DNA of 37,705 nucleotides from an uncultured Lachnospiraceae bacterium (GTDB taxonomy: Bacteria > Bacillota > Clostridia > Christensenellales > UBA1242), in contig CAYQCO010000002.1 of NCBI GenBank assembly GCA_964416085.1, forward strand, positions 1 to 37,705, in the 5' to 3' direction. Below the pieces are notes generated by a model. That model was not told where the DNA came from and did not search any database. It saw only the letters and a list, made by a program, of their open reading frames with translations. The translations under genes were made by a program, and so were the position numbers. This document shows, in pieces, positions 4,751 to 36,827 of this stretch. How positions within the stretch are numbered: the first letter of the stretch is position 1; every line of letters starts with the position of its first letter.

Positions 4751-4833
4751 TACATTGAAAAATTTTCATTGTAGTTCGCTTATTTGAAAATTTGACAATT
4801 TTTACAAAGTCGTAGTTCGCTTAAACTTTGTTG

Positions 4834-4866
4834 AAAAACACCAAGCGTTAAGTTTGGTGTTTTTTG
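4834..4866 (+). terminator. Rho-independent terminator downstream of ppdK
   Basis: Stem AAACACCAA / TTGGTGTTT with a 9-nt loop, followed by a T-run at 4861-4865. Confidence 0.65.
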
Positions 4867-4874
4867 TTGGGGCA

Positions 4875-4956
4875 GGGGGCAGAAGTGCGTGCGTAAGCAC
4901 GCCGGTCGCCCGTTAGGGCGACAAACGGTTGCCTTGCAACCGTTACTTCTGCCCCC
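4875..4956 (-). repeat. GC-rich four-way-junction structured repeat, copy 1 (inverted relative to copies 2 and 3)
   Basis: Closing stem GGGGGCAGAAG (4875-4885) / CTTCTGCCCCC (4946-4956) encloses three hairpins: GCGTGC-GTAA-GCACGC, GTCGCCC-GTTA-GGGCGAC and AACGGTTGC-CTT-GCAACCGTT. The strand label only records orientation relative to the other copies. Confidence 0.85.
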
Positions 4957-10583: not shown

Positions 10584-11777
10584 ATGAAAATTTTAGTTAT
10601 CAATGCAGGAAGTTCATCATTAAAAGCACAACTTATTGACTCAAAAACTGGCAAAGTTTATGCAAAATGTGGTTGCGAAAGAATTGGAGTTGGCAATTCT
10701 TTCATCAAATTTGAAAGTGACAAAGGCAAGGTTAAAGTAGACTACGAAATGACTGAGCACGGCCAAGCAATCAAAGGTCTTATCTCTTATCTTTTGAGCG
10801 AAGAGTATGGATGTATCAGTTCATTGAGCGAAATTGACGCTATTGGACATAGAATGGTTCACGGCGGCGAAAAGTATATCAAACCTTGTTTAGTTACTGA
10901 AAACGATTTGAAAAAATTGGAAGAATTGGTTCCACTTGCTCCACTTCACAATCCAGCACATATTTTGGGTATGCGCGCTTGTATGGAAGCAATGCCTGAC
11001 AAAAAAAATGTGGTTGTTTTTGACACTGGATTCCACGCAACAATTCCAAAGAAAGCATATATGTATGCTATTCCTTATGAATTTTATGAAAAGAACAAAA
11101 TTAGACGTTATGGCGCTCACGGCTCTTCACACAGATATGTTAGTGAAGTGTTGAGTGAAATGCTTGGCGGTCTCCAAGGCAAAAAGGTTATCTCTTGTCA
11201 CCTTGGAAACGGAAGTAGTATCACTGCCATAAAAGACGGCAAAAGTATTGACACATCTATGGGATATACTCCACTTGCTGGTGTGGTTATGGGCACTCGT
11301 TCTGGTGACGTTGACCCTAGTGTTTTGCAATCAATTTGTGGAATCAAAAATTGTTCTATTGATGAATGTTTGACAATCCTCAACAAGCAATCTGGATTGC
11401 TAGGAATTAATGGTGAATCTAGTGATATGAGAGATGTGGATGCCAATCTTGACAAACCACTTTACAAATTAAGTTTTGATATGCTTTGCTATTCTATCAA
11501 AAAATACATTGGTGCATATGCAGCAATTATGAATGGCGTTGACCATATTATCTTTACTGGTGGTATTGGTGAAAATGACGAACTCGTTAGACGTGAAGTT
11601 ATGCGTGATATGGATTATCTTGGCGCTCAACTCGATGAAGACAAAAACGACCACATTGCTCGTGGCACTATCGAAAATTTGTCAGCACCAAATTCGCGTG
11701 TTCAAATTTGGCGTATTCCTACTGATGAAGAACTCGTTATTGCAAGAGACACTGAAAGACTTGTAACAAAAAAATAA
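10584..11777 (+). CDS. ackA: Acetate kinase
   Basis: MKILVINAGSSSLK N-terminus, GHRMVHGG, HNPAH, RYGAHGSSH and IFTGGIGEN motifs. Confidence 0.96.
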   Translation: MKILVINAGSSSLKAQLIDSKTGKVYAKCGCERIGVGNSFIKFESDKGKVKVDYEMTEHGQAIKGLISYLLSEEYGCISSLSEIDAIGHRMVHGGEKYIKPCLVTENDLKKLEELVPLAPLHNPAHILGMRACMEAMPDKKNVVVFDTGFHATIPKKAYMYAIPYEFYEKNKIRRYGAHGSSHRYVSEVLSEMLGGLQGKKVISCHLGNGSSITAIKDGKSIDTSMGYTPLAGVVMGTRSGDVDPSVLQSICGIKNCSIDECLTILNKQSGLLGINGESSDMRDVDANLDKPLYKLSFDMLCYSIKKYIGAYAAIMNGVDHIIFTGGIGENDELVRREVMRDMDYLGAQLDEDKNDHIARGTIENLSAPNSRVQIWRIPTDEELVIARDTERLVTKK

Positions 11778-11815
11778 CAATATCCCCATCTTCCCAAATT
11801 ATTTTTCAAAAACAG

Positions 11816-11844
11816 TTGACAAACCATTAAAATTGTTGTAAGAT
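11816..11844 (+). promoter_or_regulatory. Sigma-A-like promoter candidate for rpmF
   Basis: TTGACA, 17-nt spacer, TAAGAT, about 55 nt upstream of the rpmF ATG. Confidence 0.4.
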
Positions 11845-11898
11845 ATACTCGTAATTTGTATCTTGCGAAATTGCGAGAAATATCAACGGAGGTTAAAA

Positions 11899-12090
11899 AT
11901 GGCTGTTCCAAAAAGAAAAGTTTCTAAGTCTAGAAGAGATAAAAGAAAAGCAAACTGGAAAATTTCTGTTCCAAGTTTAGTAGAATGTCCTCATTGTCAC
12001 GAGAAGAAGATTGCTCACCAAGTTTGCAAAAACTGCGGTTATTATGACGGTGAAGAAAGAATTGTTGTAGACAAAGAAAAGAAAGATTAA
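11899..12090 (+). CDS. rpmF: 50S ribosomal protein L32
   Basis: MAVPKRKVSKSRRDKR N-terminus plus zinc-ribbon CPHC...CKNC. GGAGG RBS at 11888-11892. The ORF-track start at 11863 is an upstream extension. Confidence 0.93.
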   Translation: MAVPKRKVSKSRRDKRKANWKISVPSLVECPHCHEKKIAHQVCKNCGYYDGEERIVVDKEKKD

Positions 12091-12091
12091 G

Positions 12092-12120
12092 AAAATTCGG
12101 GCAAAACCCGAATTTTTTTT
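12092..12120 (+). terminator. Rho-independent terminator after rpmF
   Basis: Stem AAAATTCGGG / CCCGAATTTT with loop CAAAA, running into a T8 run. Confidence 0.8.
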
Positions 12121-12130
12121 GTTGTTTGTT

Positions 12131-12158
12131 TTGAATGTAGAACAAATTGTGATATAAT
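12131..12158 (+). promoter_or_regulatory. Sigma-A-like promoter candidate with extended -10, for plsX
   Basis: TTGAAT, 16-nt spacer ending in TGa, then TATAAT. Confidence 0.45.
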
Positions 12159-12175
12159 ACTATCGGGAGAAGATT

Positions 12176-13186
12176 ATGAAAGTAGTAGTAGATGCGTTTG
12201 GGGGAGATTATGCTCCAAGCGAAATTATTGATGGATGTATAAAAGCATTAAACGAAAATCCAAAACTTAAACTTGTTTTGGCTGGTGACAAAGACCAAAT
12301 TACAGAATATTTGCAAAAAGCAATGTTTGCGTCTGACCGTATGGAGATTGTTCACGCGCCAGATATTATCACCAATGAAGAGCAACCAGCAATGGCTATT
12401 AGGACAAAAACCAAATCGTCAATAGTTGTGGCTTATGATTATTTGAGAAGCAACGACAACTGCGTTGGTCTTGTTTCTGCTGGCTCAACAGGTGCAACTT
12501 TGACTGGTGCAGTGTTGAAATTGGGCAGAATTCAAGGCGTAAGCCGTCCAGCCCTTGCTCCACTTTTGCCAACACTCAATGGACAAAATATGATGCTTTT
12601 GGACGTGGGGGCCAATGTCGATTGCAAGCCTATCAACCTTGTTCATTTTGCTCTTATGGGAAGCGAATATATGAAGTCAATGGGAGTGGAAAACCCAAGA
12701 GTTGCACTTCTTAATGTTGGCACAGAAGACGAAAAGGGCAACGAACTTGCCAAAGAAGTTTTTGGACTGTTGAAAGAAGAAAGCAAAATTAATTTTGTCG
12801 GCAATGTTGAAGCAAGAGATATCTTAAAAGGCAATGTGGATGTGGTTGTTGCTGACGGTTTTGCTGGCAATGTTTGCTTAAAGACAGTTGAAGGAACAGT
12901 TGAACTTTTGATGGGAATGATAAAGAGCGAAATCAAAGCAAGTGGTTGGGCAAAAATCTGTTATGCTATGGGGCTCAAAAAACCATTCAAAAATATTAAG
13001 GCAAGAATGGATTATAGAAAGGTTGGCGGTGCTCCACTTTTGGGTGTAAGCAAAATTGTTGTGAAATGTCACGGCAACAGCAGAGCAGACAGTGTTGCAA
13101 CAGCAATCAATCAAGTGGTTACTTTGCACAAAAACAAAATGATAGAAAATATTTCTAAGGTAGTTATCAATGAAGAAAACAACTAA
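12176..13186 (+). CDS. plsX: Phosphate acyltransferase PlsX
   Basis: 336 aa. MKVVVDAFGGDYAP N-terminus, SAGSTGA, VADGFAGNV and CHGNS motifs typical of PlsX. Confidence 0.95.
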   Translation: MKVVVDAFGGDYAPSEIIDGCIKALNENPKLKLVLAGDKDQITEYLQKAMFASDRMEIVHAPDIITNEEQPAMAIRTKTKSSIVVAYDYLRSNDNCVGLVSAGSTGATLTGAVLKLGRIQGVSRPALAPLLPTLNGQNMMLLDVGANVDCKPINLVHFALMGSEYMKSMGVENPRVALLNVGTEDEKGNELAKEVFGLLKEESKINFVGNVEARDILKGNVDVVVADGFAGNVCLKTVEGTVELLMGMIKSEIKASGWAKICYAMGLKKPFKNIKARMDYRKVGGAPLLGVSKIVVKCHGNSRADSVATAINQVVTLHKNKMIENISKVVINEENN

Positions 13187-13841: not shown

Positions 13842-14353
13842 TAATTTCAAAAGATAACAAAAGCAAATTGCCAAAAAAATTGTTGCCCAAGAAATGCCAA
13901 GCTGTTGTTAGTTTTTTGTCATTTATTTCTAGCGATGACGACATAGGGATTGTTTTGTATAAAAACAATGATGAATACTTGCCAGCGCATTTTGTTTTTG
14001 ATGTTGAAATGCACAAATTAAAATGCAAAACGGTTGACGAATTGATAGGTCAAAGTTATGCTATTTTTGACAACAACAGAAATTACATAAAACTTGCCAA
14101 AGAAAAATTTGAAGAAGAGTTTTTGACAAAAATTGTGGCAGATGACGAAAAAGACATTTTTGAACTTGTAATGGAAAATGAGCGAGTGGTGCTCAAAAAA
14201 CATATTATTTGTGTCATCAAGTCTTGTGAAGAAATTGAACATTTGATAAACCCTGAATTTGTGAGAGATTGCAAACTTGTGAGGCTAAACGAGTTGGAAA
14301 ATGATTGTAATATTGCGGAATATTGCCTTGAATTTTTGTGTGCGGGGGAATAG
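13838..14353 (+). CDS. Hypothetical protein, translationally coupled to rnc
   Basis: 171-aa ORF. Its start overlaps the rnc stop (ATGA). No motif recognised. Confidence 0.5.
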   Translation: MIISKDNKSKLPKKLLPKKCQAVVSFLSFISSDDDIGIVLYKNNDEYLPAHFVFDVEMHKLKCKTVDELIGQSYAIFDNNRNYIKLAKEKFEEEFLTKIVADDEKDIFELVMENERVVLKKHIICVIKSCEEIEHLINPEFVRDCKLVRLNELENDCNIAEYCLEFLCAGE

Positions 14354-14356
14354 GCT

Positions 14357-14440
14357 GGGGGCAGAAGCAACGGTTGCAGAGCAACCGTTTGTCGCCCTTG
14401 CGGGCGACCGGCACGCCTTTCGGCGTGCACTTCTGCCCCC
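14357..14440 (+). repeat. GC-rich four-way-junction structured repeat, copy 2
   Basis: Closing stem GGGGGCAGAAG (14357-14367) / CTTCTGCCCCC (14430-14440) encloses AACGGTTGC-AGA-GCAACCGTT, GTCGCCC-TTGC-GGGCGAC and GCACGCC-TTTC-GGCGTGC. About two-thirds G+C by hand count (57 of 84). Confidence 0.9.
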
Positions 14441-14471
14441 GTATACGCCAAAAAACAACAAAAATTGCAAC

Positions 14472-14518
14472 AAATTTCGTGTCTAGGGTCAAATTTGCTA
14501 GACACAAATTTTTTTTTG
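14472..14518 (+). terminator. Rho-independent terminator ending the plsX-rnc unit
   Basis: Stem AAATTTcGTGTCTAG / CTAGACACAAATTT (one bulged C) with an 11-nt loop, running into a long T-run (14509-14517). Confidence 0.7.
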
Positions 14519-23008: not shown

Positions 23009-25270
23009 ATGGATTACAAACAATTATTAAACGATGCACAATATGAAGCGGTTATTTCAACAGAGGGTCCAGTTATGGTTAGTGCTGGGGCTGGCAGTGG
23101 CAAGACAAGAGTGTTGACTTATAGAGTATCATATTTGCTCACAGAATTAAATGTTCCCGCACACAATATTGTGGCGATTACTTTCACCAACAAAGCAGCC
23201 AATGAGATGAAAGAACGTATTGCGAAATATGAAGAGTCTGGGAGAGATGTCAATGTTTCAACAATACATAGTTTGTGTGCAAGACTGCTTAGAACTTATG
23301 TAAGTTTTTTGCCAGAATACAAAGAAAACTTTTCTATCTACACAGACAAAGAGCAAAAGCAAGTTTTTAAAACTGTTTTTGAGACAATGGGAATTGACAA
23401 AACTGAAAGTCAGTTGAAAGACAAAATTCAAAACCATTTTTACAAAATCAAAAACGATTGTTTGGATATTGAAGAGTATTGCTCAATTCACAAATATTTT
23501 GCAGAAATTCCTTATGTAAAACGCTTTTTTGAACTCTATCAAAAAGAACTAATAAAAAACAATGCAATGGACTTTGACGATTTGCTCATTAATGTTTACA
23601 AACTCTTAAAGAATAATGATGATGTCAGATTTTCTATTCAAAGAAAGTTTAGATATCTTATGGTTGACGAGTTTCAAGACACCAACAACCTTCAATATGA
23701 AATATTAAAACTTATGGTTGGTCCAGACAGAAACATTTTTGTCGTGGGGGATGAAGACCAGTCAATTTATAGTTGGCGTGGCGCAAATGCTGATATTATG
23801 ATGAGGTTTTTGCGAGATTTTGCTGACACCAAAGTTGTAAAACTTGAAAAAAACTATCGCTCAACCAAAGAAATTTTGTCCAAGGCCAATGAACTAATTA
23901 AAAACAACAAAAATCGTCTTGACAAGGAACTCTATACGGACAACGAAAAAGGTCAGCCAATAGAGTATTATTCTGGCTATGAAGAGAGTGAAGAAGCGGA
24001 CTATGTTGCAAGGCATATTTATATGTTGCACAGCCAGGGAGTGCCTTACAACGAAATAGCAATTTTGATGCGACTCAATGCTCTTACTAGACCGTTTGAA
24101 GAAAAACTTTTGTCATTGAATATTCCGCACAAAATCTATAATGGTTTTAAGTTTTATGATAGGGCAGAAATCAAGGCAACACTTGCATATCTTGTGGCGG
24201 TTGCCAATCCAAGCGACAACAACAATTTGTTGAAAATCATCAACTTTCCAAAACGTGGAATTGGCGAAGCAAGTATTGAAAAATTGCAACAACTTGCCGA
24301 TGCGAAAAAATGTAGTTTGAAAGAAATTATCTTGAATTTTAGGAATGAAGATATAAAATCTGCCCTAAAAACCAAACTGGAAAGTTTTGCAAAACTTCTC
24401 GACGACATTGACCAAAAATCCAAAGAGTTGGGGCTTTATGACCTTGTTTTGTATGTTGTTGATGAAGCCAAAATCAAAGAGTCTTTTGACCAAAATGATG
24501 AGCAAGGACTTGAAAGATTTATGAATGTCAACCAACTTGTTGAGTCTATTAGAGAGTATTCTGTCCTAAATCCAGAAAGCACGATTGTTGACTATTTGCA
24601 AACAGTTAGTTTGACAGCGCAAGTGGATGAAGAAGATACAACAGGCGGTGTGGTGCTTGCAACTGTGCACGGCGCCAAAGGATTGGAATTTGACAATGTA
24701 TTTATTGTTGGGCTTGAAGACAAAATTTTTCCTATTCTTCGTGACGGAGATGATGATTTGGAAGAAGAAAGACGTCTTATGTATGTGGCAATAACTAGGG
24801 CAAGAAAAAAGTTGTATCTCACCAATGCCAAGTCAAGATTTATGTATGGCAAGAGAGAACCTTCTATGCCAAGCAGATTTTTGAAAGAACTCAAAATGAT
24901 AAAAGACAAAGCGCTGGACTATATCTCTCCATATGGTGAGTATGCCAACAAAATTTATGGCAACAAATATGATTACAAAAAGTCATATAAAGGCAATGGT
25001 GAAATAAAAAATTATGCAAAAAGCAATTTTCAATCAACACCAAAAACGTTTGGATTGGGAGAAATAAAAGGTGTCACAAAAGGTATGTCAAAATCCAATA
25101 TTGATTTGTCAAAAGCAGTGGTAGGTGCACTTGTCTATCACACAAAATTTGGTAGTGGTGTGATTGTGAATACACAAGATGTTGCGAGCAATGGGTGTGT
25201 TGTGATTGATTTTGAACTGTTTGGAAAAAAGTCTCTTAACCTTGAATATGCACCAATAAAATTTTTGTAA
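23009..25270 (+). CDS. pcrA: ATP-dependent DNA helicase PcrA (UvrD/Rep superfamily 1)
   Basis: Walker A AGAGSGKT, TFTNKAANEM, DEFQDTN, VGDEDQSIYSWRGA, KNYRS, TVHGAKGLEF and VAITRAR helicase motifs. Followed by ligA as in Bacillus. Confidence 0.92.
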   Translation: MDYKQLLNDAQYEAVISTEGPVMVSAGAGSGKTRVLTYRVSYLLTELNVPAHNIVAITFTNKAANEMKERIAKYEESGRDVNVSTIHSLCARLLRTYVSFLPEYKENFSIYTDKEQKQVFKTVFETMGIDKTESQLKDKIQNHFYKIKNDCLDIEEYCSIHKYFAEIPYVKRFFELYQKELIKNNAMDFDDLLINVYKLLKNNDDVRFSIQRKFRYLMVDEFQDTNNLQYEILKLMVGPDRNIFVVGDEDQSIYSWRGANADIMMRFLRDFADTKVVKLEKNYRSTKEILSKANELIKNNKNRLDKELYTDNEKGQPIEYYSGYEESEEADYVARHIYMLHSQGVPYNEIAILMRLNALTRPFEEKLLSLNIPHKIYNGFKFYDRAEIKATLAYLVAVANPSDNNNLLKIINFPKRGIGEASIEKLQQLADAKKCSLKEIILNFRNEDIKSALKTKLESFAKLLDDIDQKSKELGLYDLVLYVVDEAKIKESFDQNDEQGLERFMNVNQLVESIREYSVLNPESTIVDYLQTVSLTAQVDEEDTTGGVVLATVHGAKGLEFDNVFIVGLEDKIFPILRDGDDDLEEERRLMYVAITRARKKLYLTNAKSRFMYGKREPSMPSRFLKELKMIKDKALDYISPYGEYANKIYGNKYDYKKSYKGNGEIKNYAKSNFQSTPKTFGLGEIKGVTKGMSKSNIDLSKAVVGALVYHTKFGSGVIVNTQDVASNGCVVIDFELFGKKSLNLEYAPIKFL

Positions 25271-36652: not shown

Positions 36653-36728
36653 GCTACTGTGGCTCAGTTGGTAGAGCAGTTGATTCGTAATCAACAGGTC
36701 GCCGGTTCAATCCCGGCCAGTAGCTCCA
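36653..36728 (+). tRNA. tRNA-Thr (anticodon CGU) with encoded CCA
   Basis: Hand-folded cloverleaf. Acceptor GCTACTG/CAGTAGC, D arm GCTC...GAGC, anticodon stem GTTGA/TCAAC with loop TTCGTAA (anticodon CGT), variable loop AGGTC, T arm GCCGG-TTCAATC-CCGGC, discriminator T, then CCA. Confidence 0.9.
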
Positions 36729-36736
36729 AATAGGGT

Positions 36737-36827
36737 GGGGGCATAAGCAACGGTTGCAAGGCAACCGTTTGACTTGTCCGCCTGTGGCGGACAAGGGGGC
36801 ACGCCTGCGGCGTGCACTTATGCCCCC
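36737..36827 (+). repeat. GC-rich four-way-junction structured repeat, copy 3
   Basis: Closing stem GGGGGCATAAG (36737-36747) / CTTATGCCCCC (36817-36827) encloses AACGGTTGC-AAG-GCAACCGTT, CTTGTCCGCC-TGT-GGCGGACAAG and GCACGCC-TGC-GGCGTGC. Confidence 0.9.

Follow-up and report, generated by a model that had tools for sequence, protein, structure and literature searches.

Three short GC-rich islands lie between the genes of a 37,705-nt stretch of DNA from an uncultured Lachnospiraceae bacterium (GenBank assembly GCA_964416085.1, contig CAYQCO010000002.1, positions 1 to 37,705; hereafter "the window"), and each is predicted to fold into a four-way junction. The question raised by this locus is whether selection has acted there on an RNA or on a palindrome in the DNA itself. 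An earlier note, made from the sequence alone, had left both open ("structured RNA or palindromic repeat"). The palindromic repeat part of this description stands, whereas the structured RNA part is disfavoured, as Watson-Crick pairs outnumber wobble pairs 552 to 3 and both strands fold alike. [quoted passage not shown]

Three copies of a nested palindrome

The islands are exactly where the earlier note had placed them, and contain 65-68% G+C in a window of 35.7% G+C overall. In a scan of the window they are, tRNA aside, the sole intergenic 80-nt stretches above ~0.6 G+C. Their anatomy is as follows (the strand is that of the canonical orientation).

4875-4956, + strand, copy 1, 82 nt, 65% G+C
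4875-4885 and 4946-4956, closing stem of copy 1
4887-4902, arm A of copy 1, GCGTGC-GTAA-GCACGC
4905-4922, arm B of copy 1, GTCGCCC-GTTA-GGGCGAC
4924-4944, arm C of copy 1, AACGGTTGC-CTT-GCAACCGTT
14357-14440, - strand, copy 2, 84 nt, 68% G+C
14357-14367 and 14430-14440, closing stem of copy 2
14369-14389, arm C of copy 2
14391-14408, arm B of copy 2
14411-14428, arm A of copy 2, GCACGCC-TTTC-GGCGTGC
36737-36827, - strand, copy 3, 91 nt, 65% G+C
36737-36747 and 36817-36827, closing stem of copy 3, GGGGGCATAAG
36749-36769, arm C of copy 3
36773-36795, arm B of copy 3, CTTGTCCGCC-TGT-GGCGGACAAG
36799-36815, arm A of copy 3

Each copy is a nested palindrome, in which a conserved 11-12 bp terminal inverted repeat (TIR; GGGGGCA-N-AAG / CTT-N'-TGCCCCC) surrounds three short perfect palindromes, with arms of 6-12 bp and variable loops of 3-5 nt. 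The closing 11-mer GGGGGCAKAAG occurs six times in the window, as three inverted pairs, for 0.39 expected occurrences, and the arm C hairpin (AACGGTTGC-NNN-GCAACCGTT) three times for none expected. The orientation of the copies calls for a correction of the earlier note: the arms run A-B-C in copy 1 and C-B-A in copies 2 and 3, i.e., copy 1 is the reverse complement of the other two, even though the window genes near the copies are all on the + strand. The element holds no conserved open reading frame (ORF), the copies differing in length by 2, 7 and 9 nt as well as in orientation. In size (82-91 nt), non-coding nature and perfect 11-12 bp TIRs, it corresponds to what is expected of a MITE.

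All three copies are predicted to fold as the earlier note had drawn them, with an 11-12 bp closing stem and three hairpins capped by 3-4 nt loops (z-scores of -8 to -11 overall). As RNA, the predicted energies range from -59 to -65 kcal/mol (z -8 to -10.5, with 0 of 200 shuffled sequences folding as well), and as single-stranded DNA (ssDNA) from -39 to -41 kcal/mol (z -8.5 to -10.8), with minimum free energies and z-scores alike on both strands for either nucleic acid. Every paired difference that the earlier note had listed between copies is present. Thus, one closing-stem pair is G-C in copies 1 and 2 and T-A in copy 3, arm B changes from GTCGCCC to (CTT)GTCCGCC in copy 3 with both sides remaining paired, and arm A changes from GCACGC(C) to GCGTGC in copy 1 with pairing kept.

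These pairs are almost exclusively of one kind. Structure-selected RNAs are usually rich in G-U pairs, which reveal the transcribed strand. Across the 15 family members considered here (the three window copies and the 12 related elements described below), 552 of 555 predicted pairs are Watson-Crick, and the three wobble pairs sit at helix ends or at one single mismatch. Unpaired nucleotides are not conserved: the loops and junction linkers vary, and loops even invert. Among orthologous or paralogous copies with identical stems, the arm 2 loop reads GAA in L039 (5737-5827) and TTC in L019b (L019:4030-4121), and likewise GTA in L016 (3046-3129) and TAC in L040 (3313-3395). Such flips of a loop over a constant stem are what hairpin inversion or template switching leaves behind in DNA.

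The same architecture in two phyla

One genome per GTDB species (185,579 species genomes) was scanned for the closing-stem pattern GGGGGCA-N-AAG ... CTT-N-TGCCCCC with a spacing of 50-80 nt. Among the 46 loci returned, 12 elements have the same architecture, i.e., a closing stem GGGGGCAAAAG(C) and three perfect hairpins with 3-5 nt loops, on arms unlike those of the window. They come from four metagenome-assembled genomes (MAGs) of Puniceicoccales (Verrucomicrobiota), one Oscillospiraceae MAG and two MAGs labelled Faecalibacterium, with 1-4 exact-end copies per MAG, and all are intergenic and far more GC-rich than their surroundings.

To relate these elements to the window, we used a covariance model built solely from eight Puniceicoccales copies. 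With this model, copy 1 scored 47.1 bits (E=1.4e-7) on the + strand only, copy 2 scored 40.3 bits on the - strand and 28.3 on the + strand, and copy 3 scored 43.2 bits on the - strand and 33.8 on the + strand, the E-values in canonical orientation spanning 1e-7 to 4e-6. Unrelated palindromes which have just the closing 11-mer in common scored 29-31.5 bits. The arms therefore contribute 10-17 bits to the 40-47 bits of the window copies, and a polarity can be defined for the family.

A MAFFT alignment of all 15 copies misplaced the arms, and the structural alignment was taken from the covariance model instead. Being fitted to the model, and with both strands as well as two chance hits among its rows, this alignment gives counts that are indicative only: 97.3% of cells are paired (vs. 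70% when shuffled and 39-55% when slid), 244 cells carry double changes (vs. 56 in shuffles), and all arm pairs covary. In the closing stem, position 8 alone varies (A-T, G-C or T-A) between invariant neighbours. Judged from this alignment, the predicted fold is strongly supported by covariation. The covariation that the earlier note had proposed to test is indeed strong, but does not mean an RNA gene.

The orientation of the 15 copies relative to flanking genes is balanced, with ~7 canonical, ~6 anti-canonical and 2 lying between convergent genes. Most Puniceicoccales copies carry an extra GCGCCC-loop-GGGCGC hairpin after the canonical 3' end, which provides an independent marker of polarity, and the lack of bias persists when polarity is set by this hairpin. 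A T-run precedes the element in Puniceicoccales. No solo ends were found in the 8-kb related loci.

In the accC-lepA spacer of Puniceicoccales, one MAG has a single copy (L039:5737-5827), and another reads accC, element, a 2.1-kb segment with a 196-aa gene and an ankyrin-repeat gene, element, lepA, with the bracketed segment at L019:1756-4121. The two copies flanking this segment are direct repeats, each with the extra 3' hairpin. The single copy of the first MAG is hybrid-like, with arm 1 as in the upstream copy of the second MAG and arms 2-3 as in its downstream copy. The hybrid-like copy and the indel reflect recombination that took place in the DNA. That orthologous Puniceicoccales copies are under added purifying selection was considered and rejected: they are 94.6-97.8% identical, no better than the flanking intergenic DNA (94-95%), and there is therefore no sign of added host-level constraint.

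The closing 11-mer also occurs in other palindromic repeats of the genome scan, from Bacteroidales (with a 23-bp TIR), Chloroflexi, Gemmataceae, Bdellovibrionales, Methanosarcinales and a Clostridium/phage family. Uniting these in a "GGGGGCA-N-AAG superfamily" was rejected, as their 29-31.5 bits correspond to the closing stem alone; several palindromic families sharing any given 11-mer are to be expected, because such families are hugely numerous in 596 Gb. An association with tRNAs was likewise rejected, only 2 of the 15 copies being near one.

Two side observations concern related loci. The Oscillospiraceae element (L012:7632-7729) is itself enclosed by a second, outer palindrome of 9 bp (GCGGGGAGC...GCTCCCCGC), as though it had entered the loop of a pre-existing hairpin, and 124 nt from a tRNA-Glu on the opposite strand. 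The AACGGTTGC-NNN-GCAACCGTT hairpin occurs with a different outer stem in GC-rich hairpin clusters of two termite-gut metagenome contigs of 59-68% G+C (L066:1860-1970 and L061:240-350).

Filled and empty sites in close relatives

The window is a syntenic housekeeping region (ppdK, pta-ackA, rpmF, plsX-rnc, rpoZ-priA-def-fmt, ligA, smc, an S1-domain protein and tRNA-Thr) of an uncultured gut Clostridia lineage. The three sites were compared with those of relatives of 77-96% protein identity. For PriA, the best match has 96% identity and originates from human-gut read sets, and relatives occur in human-gut metagenomes such as SRR25400535. At site 1, the spacer downstream of ppdK, the element is absent from L101-L104 (96% PPDK identity). 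At site 2, the spacer between the ORF and rpoZ, it is absent from L099 and L100 (90% PriA identity) and from L108 (84%). At site 3, the tRNA-Thr trailer, it is absent from L110-L113, in which an AT-rich spacer and a hairpin directly follow the tRNA; the comparison is with these loci, the short-read (Logan) contigs of nearer relatives (L105-L107) ending inside tRNA-Thr. A scan for G+C islands and a covariance-model search found no copy in these ~182 kb of partly redundant relatives' loci, against three in the 37.7 kb of the window.

The sole relative with an element at any window site is the closest one (L098, 96% PriA identity), in which site 2 is filled. Its element differs from copy 2 in the terminal arm (..CCGCCC-A-CTTCTGCCCCC) and in the flank, and the Logan contig starts inside it (L098:1-18), the kind of break that repeats cause in assemblies. 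Taken together, relatives lack the element at each of the three sites, except that the closest one has site 2 filled, and this is the insertion polymorphism typical of MITEs. Apart from the elements, synteny with the relatives is intact and the window copies border no accessory genes. By parsimony, the three copies were gained recently, and in this lineage specifically, by the intergenic DNA of an AT-rich genome of gut Clostridia. In the same region, L099 and L100 (5109-7018) carry two extra genes between ackA and rpmF (97 and 538 aa, no Pfam match), missing from the otherwise syntenic window at 11777-12176.

Genomic context of the three copies

The features next to the copies are listed below.

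4833-4868, + strand, ppdK terminator-like hairpin and T-run (ACACCAA...TTGGTGTTTTTT), directly upstream of copy 1, with an equivalent in L101 and L103
13838-14353, + strand, ORF of 171 aa without Pfam match, last gene of the plsX-rnc unit, followed by copy 2
14349-14356, + strand, left-flank motif AATAGGCT, read directly from the sequence and containing the TAG stop of the 171-aa ORF
14469-14518, + strand, AT-rich hairpin (GTGTCTAG/CTAGACAC) and T-run, terminator-like, overlapping a promoter-like site for rpoZ-priA
36653-36728, + strand, tRNA-Thr(CGU) called by ARAGORN and Rfam; copy 3 begins 9 nt after it

Copy 1 lies past the ppdK terminator-like hairpin and ahead of the promoter-like site of the next gene, and is probably poorly transcribed given this position. 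Copy 2 does follow the TAG stop of the 171-aa ORF (which has syntenic counterparts of 176 and 181 aa in L099, L100 and L108), as the earlier note had stated, with a spacer of 3 nt (GCT) between them and not the 4 nt given there. The terminator-like feature expected downstream is also found, the hairpin and T-run at 14469-14518 lying 28 nt past copy 2 and being kept in relatives without the element. Transcription of copy 2 as part of a 3' untranslated region (UTR) is therefore plausible from its position. Copy 3 adjoins tRNA-Thr(CGU) with no terminator between them. None of the three copies is preceded by a promoter-like site of its own, and none is followed by a U-tract or T-run after the closing stem on either strand, which rules out that the element is itself an intrinsic terminator.

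With the copies of the window read in canonical orientation, a T-rich ..TTGG/GTTG motif precedes 3 of 3 at a distance of 3-7 nt on the 5' side (contexts TTTTTTGTTGG-GGCA, TTTTTTGG-CGTATAC and ATGTTGG-ACT; three sites only), and this motif is ancestral at sites 1 and 3. The left-flank motif of copy 2 has a counterpart at copy 3 (AATAGGGT at 36729-36736) and, judged from the letters, may be part of the inserted DNA. The final five codons of the 171-aa ORF (14339-14353) are GC-shifted, TGTGCGGGGGAATAG against TATAATTTTGAATAA in the element-free L099 (9677-9691), with the length and frame of the C-terminus unchanged between the two. The arrival of the element seems to have rewritten the C-terminus and stop codon of this ORF. 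The stretch GGGGGAATAGG at the ORF end resembles a degenerate closing-stem half GGGGGCAGAAG.

Searches for known families and further copies

In agreement with the earlier note, no named RNA family was recognised: Rfam 15 gave no match over any window copy, either at the gathering threshold or down to E<=10, nor over the elements of 8 related loci at E<=1. The only tRNA call of ARAGORN and Rfam in the window is tRNA-Thr at 36653-36728, and the element is not a tRNA-like cloverleaf. The element also bears no resemblance to REP/BIME, BOX, RUP or ERIC repeats, as the earlier note had judged, with the GTAG tetranucleotide absent and CGTC found solely across the right boundary of copy 1. An attC-like cassette site was rejected, as core motifs and bulges are missing; the only trace of attC cores is a one-sided GTCCAAC beside copy 3, and the window encodes no integrase.

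The arm set of the window was not found again in the 185,579 species genomes, JGI metagenomes, IMG/VR, plasmids or phages. More specifically, the arm C pattern returned 46 loci in JGI metagenomes, 0 of which had the closing stem, the closing-stem pattern returned 5 loci in IMG/VR, 0 of which had the triple hairpin, and BLAST against plasmids and phages gave just chance-level partial matches. The literature was also searched in full text, both for the end sequences and for bacterial repeats of multi-hairpin or cloverleaf form, and no description of the element came up; this was a limited search and is no proof of novelty.

A probable mobile DNA palindrome and its alternatives

Watson-Crick perfection, loop inversions, lack of orientation bias, empty sites and DNA recombination all point to a palindrome at the level of DNA rather than to a strand-specific RNA. 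In view of the same features (together with strand-symmetric folding), the earlier suggestion that the paired changes reflect selection on an RNA fold is not supported. The element is described here as working like a mobile palindrome of the REPIN or MITE type, and is placed in no named family.

It is tempting to propose how such a repeat would spread, a scheme in which mobility in trans, the class of enzyme, the ssDNA intermediate and any effect at the RNA level are what we infer. Either strand, when single-stranded, would fold into the four-way junction, be it as ssDNA of replication or transposition, as an extruded cruciform or as a co-transcribed RNA. The conserved closing helix would then be what an enzyme acting in trans recognises. 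An ssDNA-acting transposase of the HUH/Y1 type, as used by REPINs and IS200/IS605, is the most plausible candidate, given the lack of target duplication, the T-rich motif and the ssDNA-foldable structure (a case built on three sites and analogy). The arms would be needed merely as structure, such that their sequence could drift freely, while selection for hairpins and the intrastrand templated correction of quasi-palindromes would keep the arms perfectly paired. These two processes would be expected to yield "compensatory" changes, and selection at the RNA level is unnecessary to explain them. New copies would insert where a transcription unit comes to a "safe" end, with no duplication of the target: past a terminator, in the gap from a stop codon to a terminator, or after a tRNA. 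In transcribed copies (likely copy 2, and probably copy 3), the structure of ~-60 kcal/mol could act as a 3'-end stabiliser or as a substrate for double-stranded RNA nucleases, and any such effect would be a side effect or exaptation and not the reason for the existence of the element.

Several points weigh against a mobile DNA repeat. Perfect pairing and covariation are equally expected of a structure-selected RNA working in both orientations. The related loci were retrieved through the closing-stem pattern, so that the conservation of this stem is partly a selection effect. A high copy number is unsupported, because three copies of the window subfamily are known in all. No direct repeat that would indicate a target-site duplication flanks the 3 window or 12 related copies, and no transposase, RAYT, integrase or recombinase gene, hence no candidate enzyme, is among the genes of the 37.7-kb window. 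Finally, a clean junction between empty and filled sites is not definable, the intergenic DNA of the relatives being too diverged, and the sites could have been emptied by loss in the relatives instead of filled by gain here, which is less parsimonious.

Among the alternatives, a cis-acting structured RNA module, in which a four-way junction in a 3' UTR or tRNA trailer blocks 3'-5' exonucleases or offers an RNase III or other processing site, is unlikely. Such a module would work either way round, the fold being symmetric, and would amount to a domesticated repeat; domestication has been argued for REP and Correia elements. The location of copy 2 between a stop codon and a terminator-like hairpin, that of copy 3 straight after a tRNA without intervening terminator, the extreme predicted RNA stability (-59 to -65 kcal/mol), the strong covariation, and the retention of orthologous copies in two species-level Puniceicoccales MAGs are all consistent with it. 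However, copy 1 is probably poorly transcribed, past a terminator and before the next promoter, G-U pairs are almost absent, and the Puniceicoccales orthologues are no better conserved (94.6-97.8%) than their intergenic flanks (94-95%). Sites are moreover empty in close relatives with otherwise identical operons, and the module would therefore be dispensable. Distinctly unlikely is a reading in which the element is a cross-phylum, horizontally spreading module and an undescribed enzyme, specific for structure and acting on the four-way junction, recognises its closing helix, with the arms a required substrate geometry as opposed to the product of drift. Behind it would be either a new kind of ssDNA transposase or recombinase moving the module and adjacent gene segments, or a conserved RNA-binding or processing factor using a portable 3'-end signal.

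It is highly unlikely that the islands are double-stranded or cruciform DNA sites for a protein of the host or of a mobile element, either an attC-like recombination site or a site for nucleoid or topology proteins (BIMEs bind gyrase and IHF). The closing helix, invariant over its 11 bp but for one position that covaries freely, does suggest sequence-specific protein contact, and direct copies surround the 2.1-kb accessory-gene indel in Puniceicoccales, where the other MAG has a hybrid-like single copy. Yet ordinary homologous recombination between direct repeats of ~120 bp explains this indel equally, the window copies flank no accessory genes in a synteny that is intact but for the elements, no integrase or recombinase is nearby in the window, and the attC hallmarks (R''/R' cores and extrahelical bases) are absent. 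For an independent non-coding RNA gene of ~85 nt with a trans-acting function, which we hold to be most improbable, one could invoke the compact, strongly structured GC-rich island in an AT-rich genome, as is typical of structured RNAs; its four-way-junction fold would be new to Rfam. Against this are the lack of a promoter-like site or U-tract terminator on any copy, the two orientations, the perfect Watson-Crick pairs, the lack of conserved unpaired nucleotides (loops and linkers vary and invert) and the absence from close relatives. Chance or an assembly artefact is hardly conceivable, with z-scores of -8 to -11, 0 of 200 shuffles folding as well, three copies where none is expected, and the same architecture in independent MAGs of unrelated studies.

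Comparison with known repeats

Read as a mobile palindromic repeat, the element can be compared with several known systems. REPs and REPINs (mobilised by the RAYT or TnpA_REP Y1 transposases, found in E. coli and Pseudomonas and clustered in BIMEs) are likewise extragenic palindromes, rich in G+C and found where transcription units end, which fold in ssDNA and RNA, lack target-site duplications and occur in both orientations. A REPIN joins two inverted REPs in a larger hairpin, comparable to the closing stem described here, and secondary roles in mRNA 3'-end stabilisation have been described for REPs. However, REPs are single imperfect hairpins of 20-40 nt with a GTAG or CGTC tag, whereas the element is a tagless nested palindrome with three perfect inner hairpins, and REP families are genus-specific, whereas its closing stem recurs in two phyla. 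Bacterial MITEs (Neisseria Correia/NEMIS, enterobacterial ERIC/IRU, pneumococcal RUP/BOX) are also <300 bp, intergenic and bounded by TIRs; they are often co-transcribed and insertion-polymorphic between strains, and the TIR hairpin can be a substrate of RNase III or E. Their TIRs derive from known insertion sequences (IS), their target duplication is defined (e.g., TA) and their interiors are AT-rich and unstructured, unlike the element, for which neither duplication nor parent IS was seen and whose interior consists of three perfect GC-rich hairpins. Elements derived from IS200/IS605 insert in an oriented manner 3' of a short specific target without duplication and have no TIR; the present element does have TIRs.

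Integron attC sites resemble the element in that they are imperfect palindromes (57-141 nt) whose active form is folded ssDNA, with structure conserved over sequence, and in that they bracket gene cassettes, for which the Puniceicoccales 2.1-kb indel may be compared. They differ in having RYYYAAC/GTTRRRY core sites, a central spacer that is unpaired and one strand marked by extrahelical bases, whereas the closing helix of the element is a perfect 11-12 bp duplex of another sequence and the window copies lie among syntenic housekeeping genes. The GC clusters of yeast mitochondria and the double-hairpin elements of Allomyces and green-algal organelles are GC-rich palindromic islands in very AT-rich genomes, with multi-hairpin folds, presence/absence evidence of mobility and loop inversions, as in the element. 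They have one or two hairpins and no sequence-conserved closing stem, and the analogy is one of behaviour only, with no homology. Small mobile palindromes as such are well known, and what is uncatalogued here is the triple-hairpin, four-way-junction form with a closing helix conserved across phyla.

If confirmed genome-wide, this would be a distinct form of small repeat, with a closing helix common to gut and termite-gut Bacillota and Verrucomicrobiota. It also calls for caution in RNA discovery, where GC-rich intergenic islands of AT-rich genomes get picked up: strong covariation need not mean an RNA gene. In practice, such elements break short-read assemblies (as in the L098 contig that ends inside one), can be the starting point for accessory genes being deleted or inserted (compare the accC-lepA indel of Puniceicoccales) and may alter the 3'-end stability of adjoining transcripts. 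The conserved closing helix provides a concrete bait for the mobilising enzyme.

Other features of the window

Two further observations were made in the window. Between the ppdK stop and its terminator lie two direct copies of GTAGTTCGCTTA (4771-4782 and 4812-4823, for 0.05 expected), both kept in L101-L103 within an otherwise diverged spacer, which may be a protein-binding or cis-regulatory motif of the ppdK 3' region. At 24734-24830 (+ strand), within a UvrD/PcrA-type helicase gene (23009-25270), the Rfam family RF03531 (n00280, "C. difficile sRNA included into helicase gene") matches over the full model length, but below threshold, at 49.5 bits (gathering score 65.2, E=1.9e-5).

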